Of a stretch of 64,000 nt of DNA, positions 4,357-20,087 are shown piece by piece (the first letter of the stretch is position 1; each line of letters opens with the position of its first letter). This stretch comes from Anaerovorax odorimutans. GTDB lineage: Bacteria; Bacillota; Clostridia; Peptostreptococcales; JAAYPU01. Location of the stretch: assembly GCA_016841185.1 (NCBI GenBank), contig JAENZQ010000006.1, positions 30,717 to 94,716 on the forward strand, read 5' to 3'. Both the position numbers and the translations under genes were made by a program. The notes beneath the pieces were generated by a model that did not search any database, had not been told where the DNA came from, and was given only the letters and a program-made list of their open reading frames with translations.

Positions 4357-5844
4357 ATGAAGATTTTCTCTGAAAAAGAAAAAATAAAAACTTTATCTAT
4401 AGTAGTATTGTTTTGTATCACGATACTACTATTATATTTTATATGGGAAGACAGCATATTTAAACAAGATACTTTTTCATTAAATACTGCTGATTCTGAA
4501 GAAAAGGACGAAATGACTCTGAATACAAATGACTTTTTGGAACCGTTTCGGCTCCGTATTAATTTTGGCGGAGGGAAATATACTGTTTTATATACGGGTT
4601 TTAGTAATGTTTGGGATAATTTTGTTTCGGCCTATTGTGAGTCGTCACAACATGAAGTGTATATTGAAGAAATTCTACCATCTCAATGGAATGAAGTACT
4701 CAACTACAAGTCTATAAAATTTGATTTTGGTGCGAATATACCCTTTAATGCCATCACAGACATAATGAATGCCAATAGAACGCAGGCAAATGAAGCCATT
4801 GAAATATTTTCTTCGGCAGCGTATTCCTCAGTAAGCCCCGGAAGCTTCTTTATCTATGACGATAAGAATAATAAATATTATCAAATTGTATGTGAAAAAG
4901 AATATAAAGATATCTTTGAATCTATTTCAGAAATAGAAAACCGCAACGTTTATGATATATATTATCCCATTAACACCTTCTTTGGTGTCGGAAATAATAA
5001 TCTGATGCCGCATTCATTAAAAAACAGCATCCAGGAGATTTCAGGAGAACAGGAGATTCATTACTACGAAACAGACAAGATTAATGCCATAGCCGAAACT
5101 TTTTTTGGAGAAAGCTTTGATTTTGTAAGAAAAATAGTCGAGACCAACGGTACGGTTATTTATATGTATGGATATGGGCAGAAAATGCTTATAGTGGACC
5201 GTAAAGGGTTTTTTGAATACAAAGAAGAAGTAACAAATATGAATAACAGTTCCGACAGCTATTTGAAATCTCTTTCCAGAGCAATAGACTTTGTTAAGGA
5301 TCACGGCAATTGGAAAACCTTAAACGGTACAAATATCTATCCGTATTTAAAAAATTCCATCGCTGTTGAAAAGAATAATAGAACAGGATACAGATTCATT
5401 TTTCAATATCGTATAAACGGGTACCCGGTTTCCTATCAAGGTAATAACTGTGCACTGGAAGTAGAAGTTATAGGAAACCGGATAACTTATTATAAGAGGT
5501 ATCTTTTAAATCAGAAAGACACGCTTCAGTATATGACCAATAATAATCAAGACCTGAAAAGTAATATTATGTCTACGGTAAATATACTAAACAACAGCTA
5601 TGAATATATAAAAGAAGCCTATATTCAAGAAGGGCATGATTTTGGAGAAAAAACAAAAATAGAAATTTTTAATGAAGTTGTCGGATTAATAAACAGGGTT
5701 GATGTAGGTTATTTTTCATATGAAAGAAAGCAAACTGAAGAGGAGATACAGCTGATACCTGTATGGATTTTTACTACAGATCAATATGAATTTTTCTTTG
5801 ATGCACGATCGGGAAATCCCATAGACTGGAATGCATTAAGATAG
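4357..5844 (+). CDS. YycH-like regulatory protein (single N-terminal TM, large extracytoplasmic domain)
   Basis: Size (495 aa), topology and position immediately upstream of a YycI-like gene and yycJ. No strong sequence motif, so the call is mainly contextual. Confidence 0.45.
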   Translation: MKIFSEKEKIKTLSIVVLFCITILLLYFIWEDSIFKQDTFSLNTADSEEKDEMTLNTNDFLEPFRLRINFGGGKYTVLYTGFSNVWDNFVSAYCESSQHEVYIEEILPSQWNEVLNYKSIKFDFGANIPFNAITDIMNANRTQANEAIEIFSSAAYSSVSPGSFFIYDDKNNKYYQIVCEKEYKDIFESISEIENRNVYDIYYPINTFFGVGNNNLMPHSLKNSIQEISGEQEIHYYETDKINAIAETFFGESFDFVRKIVETNGTVIYMYGYGQKMLIVDRKGFFEYKEEVTNMNNSSDSYLKSLSRAIDFVKDHGNWKTLNGTNIYPYLKNSIAVEKNNRTGYRFIFQYRINGYPVSYQGNNCALEVEVIGNRITYYKRYLLNQKDTLQYMTNNNQDLKSNIMSTVNILNNSYEYIKEAYIQEGHDFGEKTKIEIFNEVVGLINRVDVGYFSYERKQTEEEIQLIPVWIFTTDQYEFFFDARSGNPIDWNALR

Positions 5845-5854
5845 GAGAGGTCTT

Positions 5855-6595
5855 ATGGACTGGACGAAAGCAAAAACTATTTTAATAGCTGCACTTATTG
5901 TAACGAATATTATTCTGGGTATTTTTGTTTTTATTGAAAAAAAGGATAACCAGGAAATATATTCAGAAGTGATAGAAGAAACAGTTAACTTTCTGAAAAA
6001 CAGAAACATCTTTATTTATTCTAAAATTCCTGAGAGTATCAAGAAAATGCCTGTTCTTGAAGTGGAATATGTTAATTTCCCTATTGAAAACATAGACGAA
6101 AAAATCAGCGAAGAAGAAATACAATTAAACCAAACACTATCCGACGATGAAGCAGTTCAATTGGCCTGGGACTTTTTAGAACGAAATGATTTGATGAATG
6201 AAAATGTTCACTTGGAAAGCATAAAGAAAGACGTGAATGGGTATTTAATCCTCTATAAAAATTACTACAAAGATATTTTATTAGAAGAATGTTATATGAA
6301 GTTTGTAATAAACAAAGGCAAAATCGCTTCTTTTGAACGAGAGTGGTATTACCCGATAAAGGCAGGAGAAAACAAAAAGAGGACGATTCCTGCTACGACA
6401 GCATTGCTGAAGTTTGCCAGCCAGAAAGAAAATTTAAACGAGGAGATTGTTATTACTGATATTGAGCTGGTATACTGGTTAGAGGACAATTCATTGTTAA
6501 ATGTGGAGAACACGACTTCGGATACGGCTCTTCCGGCCTGGAAGATCAGTTTTAATAATGGCGAAAAAAAATATATTAATGCATATGAGGACTGA
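5855..6595 (+). CDS. YycI-like two-component-system regulatory protein
   Basis: The N-terminus MDWTKAKTILIAALIVTNIILGIFVF matches the characteristic MDW.K.K..F...F..LN.FL start of YycI. Length 246 aa, with gene order yycH-yycI-yycJ. Confidence 0.6.
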   Translation: MDWTKAKTILIAALIVTNIILGIFVFIEKKDNQEIYSEVIEETVNFLKNRNIFIYSKIPESIKKMPVLEVEYVNFPIENIDEKISEEEIQLNQTLSDDEAVQLAWDFLERNDLMNENVHLESIKKDVNGYLILYKNYYKDILLEECYMKFVINKGKIASFEREWYYPIKAGENKKRTIPATTALLKFASQKENLNEEIVITDIELVYWLEDNSLLNVENTTSDTALPAWKISFNNGEKKYINAYED

Positions 6596-6877: not shown

Positions 6878-7711
6878 ATGGAATTATTGTTTTGTTCAAT
6901 TGCAAGCGGGAGCAGCGGGAATTGTTATTTAATAGCATCCAAAGAGACGAAAATACTTTTAGATGCAGGTATTTCCGGAAAAAGAATCATCCAGGGACTT
7001 ACTGCCATTGGTGTAGATTGCCGGGAAATAACTGCAATATTGATTACCCATGAGCATATTGACCATGTAAAAGGCGCAGGTATTATTTCCAGAAAGAATG
7101 ATATTCCTATTTTTGCAAATGCCAAAACATGGGAAAAAATGGAGGGGAGCATTGGTAAGATTGACGCAAAGAATAAAAGACTTTTTTTTACAGGAGAGAC
7201 TTTTGATTTAAATGATTTTTTGATAAAATCTTATTCTATTCCTCACGATGCTGCAGACCCGGTAGGCTTTTCAATTTACAAAGAGGATCTTCAAATTAGT
7301 GTTGCCACAGATATCGGAGATATGACAGAAGATATATTTAATGAAATATCTAATGCCGATTTTCTTGTTTTAGAGGCCAACCATGATATAGAGATGCTAA
7401 AGATGGGGCGGTATCCCTGGTATCTTAAGCAACGCATCTTAAGCAGCATCGGACATCTATCCAATGTAGATGCAGGAAAAACCCTTATAAAAATTCTTAA
7501 AAAGGATAATAAAGAAAGGCAGGTATTGCTTGCGCATTTGAGCCATGAAAATAATTTCCCTGAAATGGCTTATCAGACTATAAAAAATATTCTTGAAGAA
7601 GAACGGTATTATATCGGAAAAGATATACTGATACATACTGCTCTTAGAGAGCAGATAAGTGAAATTTACAGCATAAGAAAACAAGAGAGGTGTTACTATG
7701 GATCATTATGA
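6878..7711 (+). CDS. yycJ: MBL-fold metallo-hydrolase, YycJ/WalJ type
   Basis: HEHIDH (HxHxDH) motif and N-terminus MELLFCSIASGSSGNC, like YycJ. The start is taken at the ATG at 6878 behind ggagga. Confidence 0.8.
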   Translation: MELLFCSIASGSSGNCYLIASKETKILLDAGISGKRIIQGLTAIGVDCREITAILITHEHIDHVKGAGIISRKNDIPIFANAKTWEKMEGSIGKIDAKNKRLFFTGETFDLNDFLIKSYSIPHDAADPVGFSIYKEDLQISVATDIGDMTEDIFNEISNADFLVLEANHDIEMLKMGRYPWYLKQRILSSIGHLSNVDAGKTLIKILKKDNKERQVLLAHLSHENNFPEMAYQTIKNILEEERYYIGKDILIHTALREQISEIYSIRKQERCYYGSL

Positions 7712-8900
7712 AAACAAGGATCACGATGCAATAAAGCATCTTCTCAATGAAGAATACGATGATTCTAAAGTTCATGAAAAAATAATCATAGAAAATACAA
7801 AGAAAAAGAAGAAAAATATTTCTGTCATTACGCTTATTATCTTATCTTTGGTTTTTGGCTTGTTTGGAGGGGCAATGTCCTATTTTGCTATGCCTTTTCT
7901 GATGGGGGAGACTGTAGATGAACAAGTCCCGAATAACATACAGATACAAACAAATAATGTACCTTTAGATGCTGCTGCAGCTGTTGCAGAGAAGGTCATG
8001 CCTTCAGTGGTTGGAATATCTACAGAGATCGTATACTCTGATTTTTTTGGAAAAAGAATAGGAGAAGGAGTAGGGACCGGCGTTATTGTAGATAAAAATG
8101 GTTATATTCTTACCAATTCCCATGTTGTAAACAATGGTGATATGAATGCCCTTATGGTACTTCTTTATGATGGTCGTGAGCTTAAAGGAGAATTGCTCTG
8201 GAATGACCCGGTCATCGATTTGGCTATTGTTAAAATTGATGCTCAAAATTTAACTCCGGCAGAACTTGCCGATTCAGACAATCTCAAAGTTGGTCAATAT
8301 GCTGTTGCCATTGGCAATCCATTAGGATTCCAGTTTGAAAGAACAGTAACATCGGGGATTATAAGCGGTTTAAACAGAACTATACCTGTTAGTAATTATG
8401 AATCCATTGAAGGACTTATTCAGACGGACGCCTCCATTAACCCGGGAAACAGCGGTGGACCATTATTAAATCAAAAAGGTCAGGTAATAGGGATCAATAC
8501 TGCAAAAATACAATCCGGAGAAGGATTAGGCTTTGCAATTCCTATAAACATTGCACAGCCCATCGTTAACGAATTTAAAGAAAAAGGAGAATTCAGAAAA
8601 GCGGTTATCGGTATCAGAGGTGTTGATGTTGAACAATATTTGCAAAGCTTTGAAGAAGATCTCGGAGTGGAAGACGGAGTCTATATCTATCAGATTTTTA
8701 CAGATTCTCCTGCATCAAAGGCCGGACTAAAAGAGGGAGATATTATTACTAAAGTCGATGATAAAGAGATTACCAGTATGTCTCAATTGGTCAGCAAACT
8801 GTATCAATACAGGCCTGGGGATACCGTTAAACTTGAAATTGTAAGAGATAAAATAGCCAAAGAAGTGGATATTATACTGGGTTCCGCTACAGACATATAA
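7698..8900 (+). CDS. htrA: HtrA/DegP-family serine protease with N-terminal TM and C-terminal PDZ domain (YycK/HtrC position)
   Basis: Catalytic-triad context TNSHVV, DLAIVKI and GNSGGPL. PDZ-like GLKEGDIITKVDDKEI. Overlaps the yycJ end by 14 nt. Confidence 0.85.
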   Translation: MDHYENKDHDAIKHLLNEEYDDSKVHEKIIIENTKKKKKNISVITLIILSLVFGLFGGAMSYFAMPFLMGETVDEQVPNNIQIQTNNVPLDAAAAVAEKVMPSVVGISTEIVYSDFFGKRIGEGVGTGVIVDKNGYILTNSHVVNNGDMNALMVLLYDGRELKGELLWNDPVIDLAIVKIDAQNLTPAELADSDNLKVGQYAVAIGNPLGFQFERTVTSGIISGLNRTIPVSNYESIEGLIQTDASINPGNSGGPLLNQKGQVIGINTAKIQSGEGLGFAIPINIAQPIVNEFKEKGEFRKAVIGIRGVDVEQYLQSFEEDLGVEDGVYIYQIFTDSPASKAGLKEGDIITKVDDKEITSMSQLVSKLYQYRPGDTVKLEIVRDKIAKEVDIILGSATDI

Positions 8901-10582: not shown

Positions 10583-11773
10583 ATGGAACGATGGAAATTT
10601 AATTTATACACACTTTGGGTAACACAGGTCATTTCTCTGTCAAGCTTTGGCTTGGGAATACCTTTTATGTCTTTCTATATTCAGGATATGGGAGTTACAG
10701 ACGATTACAGGATCAAGTTATATACAGGGATATTAAGCATGGCCCCTGCAGTGACCATGGCAATCGCCTCACCTATCTGGGGGCTTGTGGCAGACAGATA
10801 CGGCCGCAAGCTGATGATCTTAAGAGCTATGTTTGCAGCAGCTTTTATTATCGGAGGAATGGGATTCGCTGCGGATGTCTGGCAGCTTGTTGTTTTGAGA
10901 GGCGCACAAGGACTATTTACAGGAACCATGACGGCTTCCAATGCTTTTGTTGCCGCAAATACACCTGAGGATAAGCTGTCAAAAGCTTTGGGATTCATGT
11001 CGTCTTCTAATTTTATCGGTTTTTCGGTAGGACCTTTTTTAGGCGGCATCTTGGCAGAACTGTTCGGAATCCGATTTAGCTTTATAATCGGTGCAATTCT
11101 TATGTTCATTGGGTTTTTATTGGTATTGTTTTTTCTGAAGGAAGATAAATTAACTTATGGAAAAACAAGTGTGAGGGAAGAGGATAAAACAGGCGTTAAG
11201 GCTGTTATAAAACTTACTATAATTTATTTTCTTCTTGCCTTGTTTATTACGAGAATCACCAGAACTATTTTTGCACCATTTGTTCCTCTTTATGTTCAGC
11301 AAAAATTGGGAACCATAGAAGGGGCGGCCAGCATTACAGGTATTATCAGCGGGGTTACAGGTTTGGCTACGGCAATTGCAGGCCTTACCATTTCACAGCT
11401 TGGAGACAGATGCGATAAATATATATTGATCAGGAAGCTGTTGATAACCAGTATTATAATAGCGGCGCCTCTGGTCTTAATTGATTCTTTGTATCTTTTT
11501 TTGGCTTTTTATGGGTTGCTGTTTTTCTTTATTGGAGGAATCGAACCCATCATAACATCCATGGCTGCACTCCATACTCCTTCCAATCAGAGAGGTGCTT
11601 TATTTGGTATTCAGGGATTTGTAAGCAGTGTTGGGTGGATGATTTCACCGATCATGGGGACTTATATTTCCGTCAATTTCAGTATCAGGAGTATATTGAC
11701 CGTTATTCCCATGTTAATAAGTATTAACTTATTGATTATGTATATAAGTAGTAAAAAAAGCAAAAAAATTTGA
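10583..11773 (+). CDS. MFS transporter
   Basis: About 12 predicted TM segments and the loop 2-3 motif GLVADRYGRKLMI. Confidence 0.8.
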   Translation: MERWKFNLYTLWVTQVISLSSFGLGIPFMSFYIQDMGVTDDYRIKLYTGILSMAPAVTMAIASPIWGLVADRYGRKLMILRAMFAAAFIIGGMGFAADVWQLVVLRGAQGLFTGTMTASNAFVAANTPEDKLSKALGFMSSSNFIGFSVGPFLGGILAELFGIRFSFIIGAILMFIGFLLVLFFLKEDKLTYGKTSVREEDKTGVKAVIKLTIIYFLLALFITRITRTIFAPFVPLYVQQKLGTIEGAASITGIISGVTGLATAIAGLTISQLGDRCDKYILIRKLLITSIIIAAPLVLIDSLYLFLAFYGLLFFFIGGIEPIITSMAALHTPSNQRGALFGIQGFVSSVGWMISPIMGTYISVNFSIRSILTVIPMLISINLLIMYISSKKSKKI

Positions 11774-11790
11774 CACAGGAGAATACAAAA

Positions 11791-12681
11791 ATGAATAAGC
11801 AGTTACAAGCAGATTTAATGCTGCTCTTTGTTACCCTTTCCTGGGGTGTTTCATATTACTTTACTAAAGTGGCATTAGACGATGTACAGGAATTCAATCT
11901 AATTGCGTTAAGATTTACTATAGCATTTATATTATCCGGATTAGTCTTTCACAAAAAAATCAGAGAAAGCAATACGAAAACAATAAAAAATGCATTTATT
12001 CTTGCAATACTTCTTTTTTCGGCATATGTTTGTTTCACTTTTTCTGTGATATATACGACCACAACCAATGCTGCATTTATTACAAGCCTTGCAGTTGTTT
12101 TAGTACCTATATTTTCATCGGTGATTTTCAAGCTCAAACCGGAAAAAAATGCAGTTGGAGGGGTTGGTTTTGCTCTGGTGGGTATTGCTTTACTGACACT
12201 CAACGGGAAGTTTTCCGTAAACTATGGAGATATTCTTTCTTTTCTTTGTGCCGTTTCATGTGCCTTCCATCTGATTCTTATGGGGAAACTAACGAAAGAA
12301 GTAGATTCTGTTGCCCTGGGTGTTCTGCAAATCGGATTTGTGGCACTTTTCAGTATCATTTTTACTTGTATTTTTGAAACACCAAAATTGCCGTCTGTCC
12401 TTCAAACACAAATTTTTGTCATTTTTCTGAGTGTATTTTGTACAGCAGCGGCCTTTATTGCTCAGACAATTGCCCAGCAATATACATCTCCTACCCATGT
12501 AGGGCTGATTTTTTCTTTAGAGCCGGTTTTTGCATCTATTTTTGGCCTTTTATTTCTTAATGAAATTCTTTCTCTAAAAGGATATGTAGGATGTTTGTTT
12601 ATGCTGATCGGAATTTTAATTGCCGAGCTGGATACGAAAAAATATTTTAAGAAAAAGGATATAGTAAAAAATACTAAATAA
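11791..12681 (+). CDS. DMT-superfamily (EamA-type) transporter
   Basis: About 10 TM segments in a duplicated EamA-like arrangement. The ATG at 11791 is preceded by aggaga. Confidence 0.75.
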   Translation: MNKQLQADLMLLFVTLSWGVSYYFTKVALDDVQEFNLIALRFTIAFILSGLVFHKKIRESNTKTIKNAFILAILLFSAYVCFTFSVIYTTTTNAAFITSLAVVLVPIFSSVIFKLKPEKNAVGGVGFALVGIALLTLNGKFSVNYGDILSFLCAVSCAFHLILMGKLTKEVDSVALGVLQIGFVALFSIIFTCIFETPKLPSVLQTQIFVIFLSVFCTAAAFIAQTIAQQYTSPTHVGLIFSLEPVFASIFGLLFLNEILSLKGYVGCLFMLIGILIAELDTKKYFKKKDIVKNTK

Positions 12682-13006: not shown

Positions 13007-13630
13007 ATGACTGAAAATTATGATAATTTAAATGACCTTCAAATTGATGTTTTAAAAGAAATAGGGAATATTGGAGCAGGAAATGCTGCGACCACCCTTT
13101 CCATGATGTTATCTAAAAAAGTCGATATGTCTGTTCCTCAGGTTAGAATAATCGATATTCAGGAAATTGCCAACATCCTGGGAGGACCTGAGAATCAAGT
13201 AGTTGGTATTCTCTTTACCCTATCTAAAGATATAGAAGGCATGATGATGTTTATCCTTAAGCAGGAATTTGCTCATTTGGTTGTTAATCAGCTTATGGGG
13301 AGAGATCTGGAAAGTTTTAACGATTTTGAAGAAATGGATTTGTCTGCACTCAAAGAAATTGGAAATATTATGGCGGCGTCTTATGTAAACGCCATATCAA
13401 GCCTTACAAATTTTGGAATAGGCATTTCTGTCCCGGGTATTGCAATAGATATGGCTGGTGCCATTTTAAGCGTACCGGCGATACAGTTTGGTAAAATAGG
13501 AGACAAGGTTTTATTTATTGAAGAAGAGTTTATCGGTGGTGATGGAGAAAATGTTAATAGTTATTTAATTTTAATCCCGGAAATAGATTCTCTTCATAAA
13601 ATTTTAAAAATTTTAGGAGTAGAGCTATGA
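13007..13630 (+). CDS. cheC: chemotaxis protein CheC (CheY-P phosphatase)
   Basis: Duplicated D.LKEIGNIGAGNAAT / ALKEIGNIMAASYV motifs. Confidence 0.85.
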   Translation: MTENYDNLNDLQIDVLKEIGNIGAGNAATTLSMMLSKKVDMSVPQVRIIDIQEIANILGGPENQVVGILFTLSKDIEGMMMFILKQEFAHLVVNQLMGRDLESFNDFEEMDLSALKEIGNIMAASYVNAISSLTNFGIGISVPGIAIDMAGAILSVPAIQFGKIGDKVLFIEEEFIGGDGENVNSYLILIPEIDSLHKILKILGVEL

Positions 13631-14112
13631 GCAAACCCATCATCATAGGTATTTCTGATTTAAACATCGCCCTTCCGCCGGATGTTTTAATTACATATGC
13701 GCTTGGATCCTGCGTAGGAATATGTTTGTACGACAAAGCGGTTAAAGTTGCAGGACTTGCCCATGTGATGCTGCCTCTTAGTTCAGAGGCAAAAGATATT
13801 AGCAATCTAATGAAATTTGCAGATACGGCAACTTTAGAATTAATAAAACGAATGGAAAAAGCCGGTGCAAGCAGGAGGAGATTGGTTGCAAAGCTTGCGG
13901 GAGGAGCGCAGATGTTTGCTTTGCAGGAGGGAAATGAAGCTCTTAATATCGGAAAGCGTAATGTAATAGCAGCCAAGAAGATACTTAAATCATTGAACAT
14001 TAAAATCATTGCAGAAGATACCGGTTTAAATTACGGAAGGACCATTGAACTATCTCCGGAAACGGGGGTCTTAAAAGTAAAAGCCATTGCCCACGGAATA
14101 AAAGAGATATAG
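13627..14112 (+). CDS. cheD: chemoreceptor glutamine deamidase CheD
   Basis: ALGSCVGICLYD active-site context, 161 aa, with ATGA start/stop overlap with cheC. Confidence 0.9.
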   Translation: MSKPIIIGISDLNIALPPDVLITYALGSCVGICLYDKAVKVAGLAHVMLPLSSEAKDISNLMKFADTATLELIKRMEKAGASRRRLVAKLAGGAQMFALQEGNEALNIGKRNVIAAKKILKSLNIKIIAEDTGLNYGRTIELSPETGVLKVKAIAHGIKEI

Positions 14113-15746: not shown

Positions 15747-15998
15747 ATGACACAGTTAAACAAAAACTTGTCACTTAATGAGAGCAAAGAGGTTATCAGT
15801 TCCGGTTATACAGATTTAAATAAGAAAAAAAATTTAAAAAAGAGCAGAACAACTTCTGATACAATTGAAAAACAGTTGTTTTCTAAAGTAAATCAGGTAT
15901 TAGATCATATTGTTAAGCATCAGAACATCCACATTTCTGACTATGAAAAGGAAAATATCATTTCACAGGTTATGGAGCAAATGAAGGGAGAGTCATAA
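15747..15998 (+). CDS. hypothetical 83-aa hydrophilic protein
   Basis: ORF followed directly by the hairpin ggagagtc...gactctcc (about 15985-16008), which is shared with the convergent gene. The RBS is weak. Confidence 0.45.
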   Translation: MTQLNKNLSLNESKEVISSGYTDLNKKKNLKKSRTTSDTIEKQLFSKVNQVLDHIVKHQNIHISDYEKENIISQVMEQMKGES

Positions 15999-16008
15999 AA
16001 AGACTCTC

Positions 16009-18489
16009 CTAAATAAACAGATTTACATTGGATTCTTCAGCATTTGCAAGGTATGAAGCAACACCGGCATATTCAATGCCATCAATCAATTCTTCTTTAG
16101 TCAAACCCATTACGTCCATGGACATGGTACAGGCTACCATCCTGACACCGTTATCCATTGCCTGTTTAACCAAATCTTCAAGAGAATCTACGTTTTTATC
16201 TTTCATGACTTTTTTCATCATGGCTGTTCCCATTCCGCCCATATGCATTTTAGAAAGTTTTAGCTTATCTATTCCCCGCGGCATCATCATGCCAAACATT
16301 TTATCTATAATCGGTTTTTTCACAGAAGTACTTTCTGCTTTTCTCAATACGTTCAGACCCCAGAAAGTAAAGAACATAGTAACTTTTCGGCCCATCGAGG
16401 CAGCACCGTTTGCTATAATAAAGGAGGCCAGTACTTTATCCAGATCATTACTGAAAACGATAATAGATTTTCCGTCAAAAGCCGGTGTTTCATTTTTTTC
16501 CATCGGGCATGCCGCAGTTGTGTCTGTTCCTTTTTGAATATATACGATTTGCTCTTTTCCTTTCTTATCCACTTTTAATAAAGTGTTGCCGGTCCTTCTG
16601 CACCATGAATCCACATCTCTTGCAAAACCAACATCTGTAGCAGAAACTTCTATAATGTCACCTTCACTAAGCTCATTTATGGTTTTAAAAACCTTCATAA
16701 TGGGCCCGGGGCATTGCAGTCCACTGCAGTCCACTTTTATTGAGGCCTTTATTTCTTTGTTGTCTTCTTTTGTAGTAATCTTGTCAACAGGGAGATTGTT
16801 TGAATCGCTGCTATTATCATTTCTTGAATCGTGAAAAAGTGATTTATAGAAGCCGAAACCGCCTTCAAACACTTTTACTTTTTTGAAACCGGATTGAGAC
16901 AAAATTCTTGATGCGATATAAGATCGAAGGCCGATGGCGCAGTATGGAACAATAAGCTTATTCTTATCCAATTCATGAATCCTTTTACGCAATTGCCCAA
17001 GAGGAATGTGAATGGAATCAGGAATATAGCCTACCATTCTTTCTTCGGTTTCACCGACGTCCAGTATTACAGCAGTATCAGGACTCATATTTTCTATTTC
17101 ATCCCATCTCATAAAATCTACTAACCCTTTTATGATATTTTCTCCAACATACCCAAGCATGTTCACTGGATCCTTTGCGGATGAATAGGGCGGAGCATAG
17201 GCCAGTTCCAATTCTTTTAAATCATATAAAGTACCTCCAAGTCGAATCGTTGCAGCAATGGTATCAATACGTTTGTCTACACCGTCCTGACCAACAAGCT
17301 GTGCGCCATATATTTTACCGTCTTTACCGAAAATCAGTTTAAGGGCCAATGGTGCAGAGCCAGGATAGTATCCTGCATGTGACTTTTGATAAATCAACGC
17401 AGTATAATAATCCTTTTTATATTCAAGTCCCTGAGATTTCAGTACTTTTTCATTTACACCGGTTGAAGCCGCAGTCATATCAAACACTTTTGCCACAGAA
17501 GTACCTTGAGTTCCTCCGTAGGTCTCATTAAAGCCGCAGATATTATTGGCGCATATCCGTCCTTGTTTATTGGCGGGTCCTGCCAACGGAATCATTGTCT
17601 TTCCTTTATTTATAAAATCCTCTACTTCAATGACATCTCCAATTGCATAGATATTCGGATCTGAAGTTTTTAAATATTCATCCACAATAATACCGCCTCT
17701 TTGATTGAGGGCTAAGCCGGCATCTTTAGCAAGCCGGCTGTTTGGCCGGACGCCGATAGATAAAATAACAATATCGGCATCTATGATTTTTCCGCTTTGT
17801 AAAGTAATAAAAGTTCTACCGTTTTGATAAACGAATTTTTTGACTCCGTCATTAAGTGTAAGATTCACCTGATTTGCTCTTATGTTTTCATGAAGAATCT
17901 GAGCCATTTCATAATCCATAGGAGCCATAACCTGATCAAGCATTTCTATAATGGAGACTTCTATTCCGAGATTATGAAGATTCTCTGCCATCTCCAGGCC
18001 AATGAAACCGCCTCCGATAACCGCTGCCTTCTTTGGCTTCTTTTCATTAATGAATCCTTTGATTACATCTGTATCCGGAACGGTCCAAAGTGTGAAAATA
18101 TTCGGAGCATCAATACCCTCAATAGGAGGCTTTATAGGAGAAGAACCTGTGGAAAGTACCAAAACATCATAAGTTTCCGAATACATATTGTTTGTTGACA
18201 GATTTTTCACTTCAACTTTTTTGTTTTCCCTATCAATTGAAACAACTTCACTCTTTATGCGAACATCAATATTAAATTTGTTTTTCATGATTTCCGGAGT
18301 TTGGACCAGAAGAGCATCTCTTTCGGTTATAACATCCCCTATATAATATGGAAGCCCGCAATTTGCATAGGAGATGTATTCACCTCTTTCAAACATAATA
18401 ATTTCAATAGATTCATCCAATCGGCGAAGCCGAGCGGCCGTACTGGCACCTCCTGCCACACCGCCAACAATCAAGATTTTTTTTCCCAT
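16009..18489 (-). CDS. four-domain fusion: CoA-disulfide/persulfide reductase (pyridine nucleotide-disulfide oxidoreductase), rhodanese, TusA-like and DsrE-like domains
   Basis: GGVAGGASTAARLRR FAD fold and SYANCGLPYY redox Cys. Rhodanese loop PYCAIGLRS. TusA-type CSGLQCPGPIMK. C-terminal DsrE/YrkE-like region (IIVFSNDLDKVLASFIIANGAA...ACTMSMDVMG). The start is taken at the ATG at 18489 behind aaggag. Confidence 0.8.
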   Translation of the reverse strand: MGKKILIVGGVAGGASTAARLRRLDESIEIIMFERGEYISYANCGLPYYIGDVITERDALLVQTPEIMKNKFNIDVRIKSEVVSIDRENKKVEVKNLSTNNMYSETYDVLVLSTGSSPIKPPIEGIDAPNIFTLWTVPDTDVIKGFINEKKPKKAAVIGGGFIGLEMAENLHNLGIEVSIIEMLDQVMAPMDYEMAQILHENIRANQVNLTLNDGVKKFVYQNGRTFITLQSGKIIDADIVILSIGVRPNSRLAKDAGLALNQRGGIIVDEYLKTSDPNIYAIGDVIEVEDFINKGKTMIPLAGPANKQGRICANNICGFNETYGGTQGTSVAKVFDMTAASTGVNEKVLKSQGLEYKKDYYTALIYQKSHAGYYPGSAPLALKLIFGKDGKIYGAQLVGQDGVDKRIDTIAATIRLGGTLYDLKELELAYAPPYSSAKDPVNMLGYVGENIIKGLVDFMRWDEIENMSPDTAVILDVGETEERMVGYIPDSIHIPLGQLRKRIHELDKNKLIVPYCAIGLRSYIASRILSQSGFKKVKVFEGGFGFYKSLFHDSRNDNSSDSNNLPVDKITTKEDNKEIKASIKVDCSGLQCPGPIMKVFKTINELSEGDIIEVSATDVGFARDVDSWCRRTGNTLLKVDKKGKEQIVYIQKGTDTTAACPMEKNETPAFDGKSIIVFSNDLDKVLASFIIANGAASMGRKVTMFFTFWGLNVLRKAESTSVKKPIIDKMFGMMMPRGIDKLKLSKMHMGGMGTAMMKKVMKDKNVDSLEDLVKQAMDNGVRMVACTMSMDVMGLTKEELIDGIEYAGVASYLANAEESNVNLFI

Positions 18490-18502
18490 TTGCCACACTC
18501 CT

Positions 18503-18796
18503 TTACTTATTCAGCAATATTTTAAGTATTTTTGTTACATCATCATTTACAACACGATAGTTTATTTCCAGACCGTTTCTTGTTTTCTTTACCACACCGG
18601 CACTTCTGAGCTTTGATAAATGCTGAGAAACGGTTGATTGTGGTACATCCAGGCAATTCTGGAGGCCTGTTACATTGGATGATCCCTCATATAGAAGTTT
18701 TGTCAGAATGCAAAGACGTACCGGATGGCTGATAGTTCTTAATAATTCAGCTTTTTCCTCAAGCAAAACACGGGTTTTGTCTATATCAATATCCAT
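18503..18796 (-). CDS. ArsR/SmtB-family transcriptional regulator, apparently co-transcribed with the CoADR fusion
   Basis: ISHPVRLCILTKLL and STVSQHLSKLRSAGVV wHTH motifs. Its stop lies 13 nt before the CoADR start. Confidence 0.8.
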   Translation of the reverse strand: MDIDIDKTRVLLEEKAELLRTISHPVRLCILTKLLYEGSSNVTGLQNCLDVPQSTVSQHLSKLRSAGVVKKTRNGLEINYRVVNDDVTKILKILLNK

Positions 18797-18956
18797 ATTT
18801 TCACTCCGCCCATAATTAGAATATAATTATATTAGTATATTTATATATTATAATATTTAAATATAGTTTGCAATATTTTTTTGTGAAGAATTTAACTTTT
18901 TATACTTTTAAATTACCCAGAAGAGAAAGTAATATAACAGGATTAAAAAAAAACAT

Positions 18957-18983
18957 TAAAAAAAGCGGGTTCTAAGTCCCGCT
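18957..18983 (-). terminator. intrinsic terminator of the Met-rich protein gene
   Basis: agcggg / cccgct stem with an A-run on the plus strand (a T-run on the minus strand). Confidence 0.6.
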
Positions 18984-19017
18984 CTTTATCTTGCTATTAT
19001 TAACCCGGCATCAATAA

Positions 19018-19329
19018 TTAATACATCATTCCCGGCATTCCAGGTGCGCCATACATCCCTGGCGTACCATACATACCCGGTTGCATACCATACATGGAAT
19101 TAGGGTCTTGTACCCCGCCATACATATTAGGCATATTTGGTTCCATCATGGCCGGAGACAACATAGGCTGCATACCGGTCATTGGCATACAATATACCGG
19201 AATACAGCACATAGGCTGCATGCCGTACATTGGCATTTGCGGCATGGTATCATAGATTCCACCAACTTCAGGAACTTCTTCAACAGGTTGTGTAATCGGT
19301 GCTTTTGGTGTATTTTGATAATTATCCAT
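19018..19329 (-). CDS. 103-aa Met/Pro/Gly/Tyr-rich low-complexity protein
   Basis: Strong RBS (ggagg), its own terminator, repeated MYGMQP / GMYG units and a CCIPVYC cluster. About one residue in five is Met. Confidence 0.7.
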   Translation of the reverse strand: MDNYQNTPKAPITQPVEEVPEVGGIYDTMPQMPMYGMQPMCCIPVYCMPMTGMQPMLSPAMMEPNMPNMYGGVQDPNSMYGMQPGMYGTPGMYGAPGMPGMMY

Positions 19330-19438: not shown

Positions 19439-19759
19439 CTATAATTCCAATTTTTTCAGCATATCTATATATTTGCCCATAATACCGATATTCACATAAT
19501 ACTCAGAAAAATTATCCTTCTTTCTGACATGAAGGATATCTGCATCAATCAGTTTTTTCACATGTTGCGAAATTGTTGATTGAGAATAGTCAAAAAATTC
19601 AACCAGATCTTTATTATGGACAGGTGTTCTTTGTGAATTACTGATTAAAATATACTTTAAAATTTTTATCCTTAGGGGATGTGCCAAAGCATCCGATATT
19701 TTTGCTGTTAATATAATTTGATTTTCTTCATTTTCAAATACATCTTTTCTGATTCTCAT
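19439..19759 (-). CDS. ArsR-family-like wHTH transcriptional regulator (no obvious metal-binding Cys motif)
   Basis: LAHPLRIKILKYI and QSTISQHVKKLIDADIL. The start is taken at the ATG at 19759 behind agaggtg. Confidence 0.7.
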   Translation of the reverse strand: MRIRKDVFENEENQIILTAKISDALAHPLRIKILKYILISNSQRTPVHNKDLVEFFDYSQSTISQHVKKLIDADILHVRKKDNFSEYYVNIGIMGKYIDMLKKLEL

Positions 19760-19860
19760 GAATTCACCTCTTACCATATCGTATATCTATGATTTACATA
19801 TATCTATTACTATAAGGTATTATGGGAAAGAGGTCAATAAGAAACAGGAGGGGATAAAAG

Positions 19861-19916: not shown

Positions 19917-20087
19917 TTAGAAGTCTAACTCATCTTGGCAGTTTCTTCTGTTGTTCTGAGATTCATTTTTTGTGTTATTCATCTGATTATTTCTGGTGTT
20001 TTTTGTATTGTTGTTCCCAGAATTCTCATTTGAATTTCTGTTATTCTGTTGATTTCTGTTTTGACTCTCATTTTGGTTATTTCTCAT
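19917..20087 (-). CDS. 56-aa Asn/Gln-rich small protein, missing from the ORF track because it is under 60 aa
   Basis: My translation of the minus strand: MRNNQNESQNRNQQNNRNSNENSGNNNTKNTRNNQMNNTKNESQNNRRNCQDELDF. The ATG is preceded by aaggaggg plus 6 nt, and a hairpin follows the stop. Confidence 0.6.
   Translation of the reverse strand: MRNNQNESQNRNQQNNRNSNENSGNNNTKNTRNNQMNNTKNESQNNRRNCQDELDF

Follow-up and report, generated by a model that had tools for sequence, protein, structure and literature searches.

A 64,000-nucleotide stretch of the Anaerovorax odorimutans genome (contig JAENZQ010000006.1; hereafter the window, meaning the whole stretch that was analysed) carries on its reverse strand two adjacent genes, one encoding a putative repressor of the ArsR/SmtB family and the other an 826-amino-acid (aa) fusion enzyme in which a flavoprotein of the coenzyme A (CoA)-disulfide reductase type is continued by rhodanese, TusA and DsrE2-type domains. 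We read the pair as an autoregulated operon in which a persulfide- or polysulfide-responsive ArsR protein controls a CoA-persulfide reductase relay, and we put the probability of this reading at roughly 0.5. The pairing of this regulator with this enzyme is real and conserved. What looks new is of modest extent, namely the ArsR pairing with a Cys geometry unlike that of any characterised sensor, together with an operator consensus.

The regulator gene (18503-18796, reverse strand) encodes 97 aa, and its stop codon lies 13 nucleotides (nt) before the ATG of the fusion gene. A sequence-only reading of this DNA had described an ArsR/SmtB regulator of this length, with two Cys residues, ending at this distance upstream. 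Both the open reading frame (ORF) and the profile matches confirm that description: HTH_5 from Pfam matches the protein at 1.3e-10, and NF033788, an ArsR/SmtB subfamily model, gives 74.5 bits against a cut-off of 55. A terminator-like hairpin directly follows the stop codon of the fusion gene (15987-16009, reverse strand), and a second, belonging to the upstream gene (18960-18987, reverse strand), sets the 5′ limit of the unit in which ArsR and the fusion gene are transcribed. Because these hairpins bracket the pair, the two genes look bicistronic.

A species survey, in which one genome was taken per species and six peptide patterns were used, found 115 relatives of the fusion enzyme, and 80 of these were kept as loci (numbered in the form L001). 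At 26 of these 80 species loci, an orthologue of the window ArsR lies directly upstream on the same strand; six loci lack upstream sequence altogether. The pairing is also seen in loci L081-L086, among which L081-L084 are close syntenic relatives of the window, and the nearest named assemblies are GCA_016278615.1 and GCA_028279945.1. Cultivable relatives with the pair include Clostridium drakei (L036), C. thermobutyricum (L085) and Tissierella simiarum (L018). The sampling was also run in reverse, with four ArsR homologues taken as the starting point and their neighbours read. Two of the four sit beside such an enzyme, which has four domains in C. thermobutyricum and three, lacking DsrE, in a Frackibacter relative. 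In the Frackibacter-type locus L086, the same ArsR precedes a 655-aa CoADR-rhodanese-TusA protein without DsrE2 (4508-6475), so the relay extension exists in graded forms.

Other regulators are found beside the enzyme elsewhere. In nine Oscillibacter-type loci (L010, L011, L012, L015, L016, L017, L019, L020 and L022), the fusion gene is adjoined not by ArsR but by a Crp/Fnr regulator with cNMP_binding and HTH_Crp_2 domains, which is placed divergently upstream in seven of the nine. As the neighbours differ by lineage, we see the fusion enzyme as coupled to regulators of at least three families (ArsR, Crp/Fnr and MarR) across lineages.

The fusion gene itself occupies 16009-18489 on the reverse strand, with its stop codon at 16009-16011 and its start ATG at 18489. 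An in-frame GTG at 18498 would give an alternative protein of 829 aa, three residues longer, but the ATG is favoured because an AAGGAG ribosome-binding site precedes it. All Pfam domain matches of the protein exceed their gathering scores. The flavoprotein part (17176-18480, reverse strand, as are all domains and codons of this gene) comprises Pyr_redox_2 at residues 4-309 (E 6.5e-68) and Pyr_redox_dim at residues 333-438 (E 6.6e-12). Pyr_redox also matches this part at 3.6e-18, as expected of the class-I pyridine nucleotide-disulfide oxidoreductase fold. There follow a Rhodanese domain at residues 464-545 (16855-17100, E 5.8e-12), a TusA domain at residues 584-653 (16531-16740, E 6.2e-20) and a DsrE2-type domain, DrsE_2 (PF13686), at residues 674-825 (16015-16470, E 7.3e-66). 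The NCBIfam TusA model matches the protein at 7.2e-13, and the NCBIfam DsrE2 model matches the C-terminal domain, although below its cut-off. The four-part composition proposed from the letters alone is thus borne out by profile hidden Markov model annotation, and the CstA-like succession of rhodanese, TusA and DsrE that had been proposed with it agrees with the Pfam domain order and with the invariant Cys residues described next.

When 99 diverse full-length homologues are aligned, four Cys residues and no others are invariant (99/99), one in each part of the protein. Cys44 (codon 18358-18360) is the redox Cys of the flavoprotein in the motif SYANC44GLPYY; a single redox Cys of the CoADR type had been predicted at this very codon, and it is present as predicted. 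Cys517 (codon 16939-16941) lies in the rhodanese loop CAIGLR, within PYC517AIGLRS, Cys593 (codon 16711-16713) in the CPGP motif of TusA, LQC593PGP, and Cys787 (codon 16129-16131) in the ACTMS motif of DsrE2, VAC787TMS. On the opposite strand, positions 18296-18464 gave a match to the Vibrio antisense RNA AS7 (RF02819) of 48.8 bits, below the gathering score of 90, which runs antisense to the conserved coding segment for FAD binding and the redox Cys. This was the only match in an Rfam scan, and it is most likely explained by a conserved coding sequence and not by an RNA gene.

Residues 3-551 of the fusion protein align end to end with three characterised enzymes of solved structure: BaCoADR-RHD of B. 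anthracis (3ICR, E 1e-190), Npsr of Shewanella loihica (3NTA, E 3.5e-164) and CoAPR of E. faecalis (8A56, deposited as coenzyme A-persulfide reductase, E 1.6e-151). The relation to CoADR-rhodanese persulfide and polysulfide reductases, which the sequence-only reading had named, is therefore strong. It extends to the catalytic motifs, since SYANC44GLPYY aligns with SFANCGLPYY of 3ICR, giving the S(F/Y)ANCG signature of the single redox Cys, and C517AIGLR aligns with CQLGMR, the short CxxGxR loop of the fused rhodanese. The C-terminal domain matches 3PNX, a stand-alone putative sulfurtransferase DsrE, at 7.6e-33. The CoA-disulfide reductase equivalog TIGR03385 covers residues 4-446 with 533.9 bits, less than its cut-off of 578.8, and NF007123 likewise stays below its threshold (405.1 versus 458). 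E. faecalis CoAPR has been shown to reduce CoA persulfide (CoASSH), for which it is specific, and to carry a persulfide on its rhodanese Cys in cells (PMC9405070).

The fusion enzyme belongs to a large, published and very common family, and its architecture is not new. The top 120 database clusters (66-81% identity, 100% coverage) all have the same Pfam set, and are annotated merely as FAD-dependent oxidoreductase or CoA-disulfide reductase. The architecture is found in at least 70 species from about ten phyla; the 80 kept loci represent Clostridia, Tissierellia, Paenibacillus, Halanaerobiales, Fusobacteriota, Lentisphaerota/Kiritimatiellia, Melainabacteria, Firestonebacteria, Margulisbacteria, Nitrospirales and Microbacterium. 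Counted as 50%-identity representatives, relatives of the TusA+DsrE2 didomain number 333 at E <= 1e-30, and 42 of the best 150 are at least 760 aa long; the didomain likewise forms part of Rhd-TusA-DsrE2 proteins, which have about 330-400 aa, and of TusA-(DsrE2)n proteins. Exactly these four domains were described in 2012 for Pcar_0429 of Pelobacter carbinolicus, together with a proposed persulfide relay ending in NADH/FAD-driven reduction (PMC3543383). The same four were tabulated in 2018 for BF638R_0572 of Bacteroides fragilis (PMC6158253, Table 3), a gene on which the neighbouring MarR-type regulator BmoR, itself autoregulated, exerts about 50-fold repression (PMC6158253). The rarity that the sequence-only reading had implied for the fusion has to be withdrawn, as the protein is abundant, taxonomically broad and earlier described, in B. 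fragilis even within a repressor-controlled operon. Its idea of a sulfur relay joined directly to NAD(P)H-dependent reduction is reasonable, but not as a new idea, since the same mechanism had been proposed for Pcar_0429. Neither PMC3543383 nor PMC6158253 contains a biochemical characterisation of Pcar_0429 or BF638R_0572, and we found no biochemistry of the TusA-DsrE2 extension of CoA-persulfide reductases in the literature.

The regulator has exactly two Cys residues, C29 in RLCIL (codon 18710-18712, reverse strand) and C48 in QNCLD (codon 18653-18655, reverse strand). Their conservation among orthologues, on which the idea of a thiol-based sensor had been made to depend, is nearly complete: among 120 ArsR homologues of 53-100% identity, C29 is kept in all and C48 in 118. 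A third Cys is found at position 40 in 89 of the 120, where the window protein has Ser, and the recognition helix PQSTVSQHL is almost invariant. The AlphaFold model of the protein (predicted local distance difference test score 94.8) comprises helices α1-α5 and a β-wing, placing C29 in α2 (residues 25-37), position 40 just before α3, and C48 in the last turn of α3 (residues 42-49). A natural variant without these Cys residues occurs in a Cyanobacteria/Melainabacteria metagenome-assembled genome (locus L080, 3238-3516), where the ArsR adjoining the fusion gene has Lys at both conserved Cys positions; it could serve as a control.

The earlier proposal had likened this regulator to the persulfide sensors BigR and SqrR, and at the level of residues the analogy fails. 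Persulfide-sensing ArsR proteins are defined by a pair of Cys residues in α2 and α5; in RexT, a peroxide sensor, the defining feature is two proximal Cys in α3 (PMC10054925). In the HMMER alignment to BigR, the window sequence RLCILT is set against RLMLVC, so that C29 falls opposite a Met; the sensing Cys of BigR comes three residues later and aligns with Thr32 of the window protein. The α2 position of BigR Cys42 and SqrR Cys41 is thus not occupied by Cys. C48 pairs with a Gln of BigR, and α5 of the window protein (residues 85-94) contains no Cys, the second Cys being residue 48 in α3. The NCBIfam BigR model gives 58.9 against a cut-off of 155, and the PagR model NF052532 gives 78.3 bits against 170. 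The α3 C-(V/A)-C motif of As(III)- and metal-sensing members is absent, as the window protein reads SSNVTG at this place; its relatives read xCNV, where the only Cys precedes the position of ArsR Cys32 by one residue. As the Cys positions, the BigR and PagR models and the CXC motif all fail to match, the regulator looks like a member of a distinct, so far uncharacterised dithiol subgroup, as judged from its sequence. No characterised clostridial ArsR of this subgroup was found in the literature, and the literature on ArsR similarity networks does not describe a class with Cys residues in α2 and α3.

We then turn to the DNA in front of the regulator gene, where a comparison of orthologous loci points to a σ70-type promoter and a candidate operator. 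The inferred promoter (18845-18873, reverse strand) has TTGCAA as its -35 box (18868-18873), a 17-nt spacer and TAATAT as its -10 box (18845-18850). Of 27 aligned ArsR promoters, 15 keep TTGACA-N17-TAATAT, as do the close relatives, within a promoter consensus that reads ATATCGTAATAT-ATAA-ATATAnnGAT. A generic σ70 scan showed no enrichment of the region (16 versus 14.4 expected), with the comparative promoter below threshold at 8/12. Over the -10 box lies a conserved, AT-rich imperfect inverted repeat of 24 bp (18831-18856), with arms ATTATAATATAT and AAATATACTAAT (18831-18854) that match at 9 of 12 positions, and this repeat lies inside a 36-bp palindrome (15/18, 18833-18868). Across the orthologous promoters, the best common dyad axis is located 8 nt past the first position of the -10 hexamer, where the arm complementarity is 8.05/12, as compared with 4.66±0.33 for shuffles. 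The overlap with the -10 box would fit repression. As a consensus, the putative operator has the arms ATCGTAATATAT and AAATATAnnGAT.

A position weight matrix (PWM) was built from 21 orthologous promoters with the window left out, and a threshold of at least 16 bits was used across loci. Its two best matches in the 64-kb window are to this element, with 21.7 and 23.6 bits; the next best has 12.6, and the maxima in shuffled sequence range from 6.6 to 15.7. The motif was found upstream of ArsR in 12 held-out loci, among them L032, L043, L046, L079 and L081-L086, and loci with a long gap between ArsR and the fusion gene have a second copy in it. In 577 kb of fusion loci without an adjacent ArsR, only three matches were obtained, all directly before the fusion gene (L039, L048 and L049), and the source genome of L039 encodes a non-adjacent ArsR homologue of 62% identity. 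The L080 locus, with its ArsR lacking both Cys residues, has no PWM match. These results are strong comparative evidence for a conserved and highly specific cis-element tied to the regulator-enzyme module.

The sequence-only reading had picked a different element as candidate operator, the 14-bp palindrome AATATAATTATATT at 18820-18833. The palindrome exists there and is perfect, but its proposed role is not supported, and the conserved repeat lies directly beside it. The window contains 12 perfect 14-bp palindromes as compared with 7.4 expected, and a spacer of this length and composition (221 nt, 23.5% GC) would contain at least one with a probability of about 0.12, so that its presence does not exceed chance. 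In L081-L084 the palindrome is missing, as it sits in a 6-nt alignment gap there. It is thus specific to the window and probably not an operator, and since it is not conserved in the nearest relatives we also rejected it as a second operator.

From these features we infer how the operon may be repressed and induced, and which way and on which substrates the relay may run. The reduced ArsR dimer would bind the 24-bp inverted repeat and block both its own gene and the enzyme gene, which would be closely coupled in translation. Oxidation of C29 and C48 would lower the affinity for DNA and derepress the operon. The most likely inducers would be forms of sulfane sulfur, for instance persulfides of CoA or cysteine, inorganic persulfides or polysulfides, which could link the two Cys residues by a di- or polysulfide or convert them to persulfides; a persulfide is plausible as the inducing signal. 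The enzyme is predicted, by similarity, to be a CoA-persulfide or polysulfide reductase of the CoADR-RHD/Npsr/CoAPR type. Electrons would pass from NAD(P)H through FAD to Cys44, while sulfane sulfur would be carried as a persulfide on the rhodanese Cys517. TusA, through Cys593, and DsrE2, through Cys787, may form an intramolecular relay that accepts sulfane sulfur, or thiosulfonate, offered by additional donors and delivers it to the reductase, with H2S and free thiol as the products released. The net effect would be to clear reactive sulfur and to protect the CoA and thiol pool of an anaerobic Firmicute.

Several observations weigh against this reading. The Cys pair of the regulator is not where any proven persulfide-sensing ArsR has it, and two of the four ArsR homologues sampled in reverse have no such enzyme alongside. 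Conservation of the motif could in part be conservation of the promoter rather than of an operator. In five Tissierellia-type loci (L005, L008, L013, L018 and L040, at about 7555-8420), the fusion gene is followed on its own strand by a rubrerythrin gene, with Rubrerythrin and rubredoxin-like domains, and this points to a possible tie with oxidative stress in the Tissierellia lineage. Finally, BF638R_0572, the only homologue that has been studied genetically, is tied to diamide and thiol-disulfide balance and to an oxidative-stress regulator, not to sulfide: its loss in a ΔbmoR background leads to higher diamide sensitivity (PMC6158253).

These last two observations speak for a different account of the operon, in which O2, H2O2 or disulfide stress is sensed by the ArsR protein through a C29-C48 disulfide, and the enzyme acts as a CoA-disulfide reductase or NADH oxidase that keeps CoA and protein thiols reduced in an anaerobe exposed to oxygen. 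Besides the B. fragilis precedent of an enzyme repressed by an adjacent, autoregulated oxidative-stress repressor (PMC6158253) and the rubrerythrin genes directly downstream, this account can draw on the closest structure, BaCoADR-RHD, having been deposited as a CoA-disulfide reductase, and on ArsR-type peroxide sensors of the RexT cluster, which are reported near NADH oxidoreductases (PMC10054925). We nevertheless regard it as rather unlikely. Simple reduction of CoA disulfide or O2 would not require three extra sulfur-carrier domains with invariant Cys residues, the vicinal Cys pair of RexT is not in the window ArsR, and the flavoprotein part falls short of the TIGR03385 cut-off for CoA-disulfide reductases. 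The specificity of E. faecalis CoAPR for CoASSH also speaks against it (PMC9405070).

Less likely again is a role in energy metabolism. The enzyme would then be a cytoplasmic NAD(P)H-dependent reductase of elemental sulfur or polysulfide (or thiosulfate), serving as an electron sink in fermentation, and the ArsR protein would turn it on with S0 or polysulfide, as SurR does with NSR in Thermococcales. SurR is an ArsR-type redox switch responding to S0, which counts in favour of such a role, as do the strong similarity to Npsr and the wide distribution of the family among anaerobic fermenters; a function of this kind was proposed for the four-domain Pcar_0429 (PMC3543383). Against it, the operon contains no genes for sulfur respiration or transport. 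In chemistry and inducer this proposal is the same as the persulfide-responsive detoxifying operon that we prefer, and differs only in physiological purpose.

Metal(loid) sensing, in which C29 and C48 (plus C40 in most relatives) would bind As(III), Sb(III), Cd or a similar ion through their thiolates and the CoADR-rhodanese enzyme would act in metalloid reduction, is very improbable: the Cys40 of 89 homologues would give an S3 set, and clostridial ars operons of Fusibacter are ordered arsR, CoADR-RHD (pno), acr3, arsC (PMC5525254, PMC9751042), but the window ArsR has Ser40 with two Cys residues only and no CXC motif in α3, the rhodanese loop is of the short sulfur type, CAIGLR, and no ars or metal-transport genes lie beside the pair in the window, in its syntenic relatives or among the genes that recur as immediate neighbours at the 80 loci. 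Membership of an arsenic operon was accordingly ruled out on the missing ars genes and CXC motif.

Further genes surround the pair in the window. Upstream on the reverse strand there is a second ArsR-family gene (112 aa, no Cys), preceded by a 56-aa Asn-rich ORF and followed by a gene for a 103-aa protein rich in Met, Pro and Gly; in order of position along the window, the three ORFs of this set lie at 19018-19329, 19439-19777 and 19917-20087. The 103-aa protein contains the motif MCCIPVYCMP, has no Pfam match and could be a metal-binding or a coat protein, and the Asn-rich ORF ends in CQDELDF. The three-ORF set is kept in L081 and L082, where a YcaO gene is found between it and the ArsR-fusion operon, while L083 keeps two ORFs, without the Met-rich gene. 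Downstream of the operon are genes for CheC-like (207 aa) and CheD-like (161 aa) proteins and an EamA-type transporter, at 13007-14112 and 11770-12681 on the forward strand. These are syntenic with L081 and in part with L083, their Pfam labels were taken from the relatives, and they are not related to the operon finding but serve as anchors of synteny.

The four-domain protein is very common in anaerobes of gut, sediment and digesters. The regulator is the more useful lead. We tentatively suggest, while considering it somewhat doubtful, that the window ArsR represents an uncharacterised class of dithiol ArsR proteins in anaerobic Firmicutes, in which an α2/α3 pair (C29/C48, often with Cys40) would respond specifically to sulfane sulfur. 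By way of a 24-bp operator over the -10 box, such proteins would regulate a relay enzyme of the CoA-persulfide reductase kind. If this is true, ArsR-type sensing of reactive sulfur would extend to strict anaerobes without CstR-type control. The signature RLC-I…Q-x-C-L-D-x-PQST-SQHL and the operator consensus make clostridial ArsR sensing of reactive sulfur or of thiol oxidation directly testable, and with the two together, regulons could be predicted in hundreds of genomes.

Among known systems, the enzyme shares with Pcar_0429 and BF638R_0572 the identical order of CoADR, rhodanese, TusA and DsrE/DrsE_2, joined in a single polypeptide of about 800-850 aa. The B. fragilis gene is likewise part of a two-gene, autoregulated repressor-enzyme operon, although the regulator there is the MarR-type BmoR and not an ArsR protein; for Pelobacter no regulator is named (PMC3543383). 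With CoADR-RHD, Npsr and CoAPR, the window protein has in common the single redox Cys motif SxANCGLPYY and the CxxGxR Cys of the rhodanese, but it continues for about 275 extra C-terminal residues, made up of a linker, TusA and DsrE2. E. faecalis CoAPR is under the control of the CsoR-type CstR (PMC9405070), whereas the window enzyme follows an ArsR-family gene.

A third comparison, of architecture, is with CstA, for which NCBIfam has no specific model. CstA of S. aureus combines a rhodanese, a TusA-like and a DsrE-superfamily domain, each with a catalytic Cys. The window protein has the same order of carrier domains, again each with a catalytic Cys, but differs in three respects. CstA is a stand-alone sulfurtransferase of the CstR-controlled cst operon and lacks a flavoprotein reductase, the DsrE-type domain of the window protein is of the DsrE2/DrsE_2 kind (PF13686), and its neighbouring regulator is of the ArsR family, not of the CsoR family to which CstR belongs.

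For the regulator, the closest solved relative is PagR of B. anthracis (2ZKZ, E 6.6e-18, 48% identity), which has Lys and Ile where the window ArsR has C29 and C48. With BigR, SqrR, HlyU and YgaV, which form cluster 4 of the ArsR sequence similarity network, the window protein shares the winged-helix fold (Foldseek TM 0.8-0.9, with SqrR, BigR and YgaV among the hits). Like these repressors, it has two conserved Cys residues, a sulfurtransferase or persulfide-reducing enzyme as neighbour (at the 26 of 80 loci and L081-L086 given above) and a predicted AT-rich inverted-repeat operator. The Cys residues themselves are differently placed, in α2 (29) and α3 (48) in the window protein, and in α2, three residues later, and α5 in BigR and SqrR. 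The α2/α3 pair would thus distinguish the proposed class from persulfide sensors of the α2/α5 kind as well as from the peroxide sensor RexT with its vicinal Cys pair in α3.

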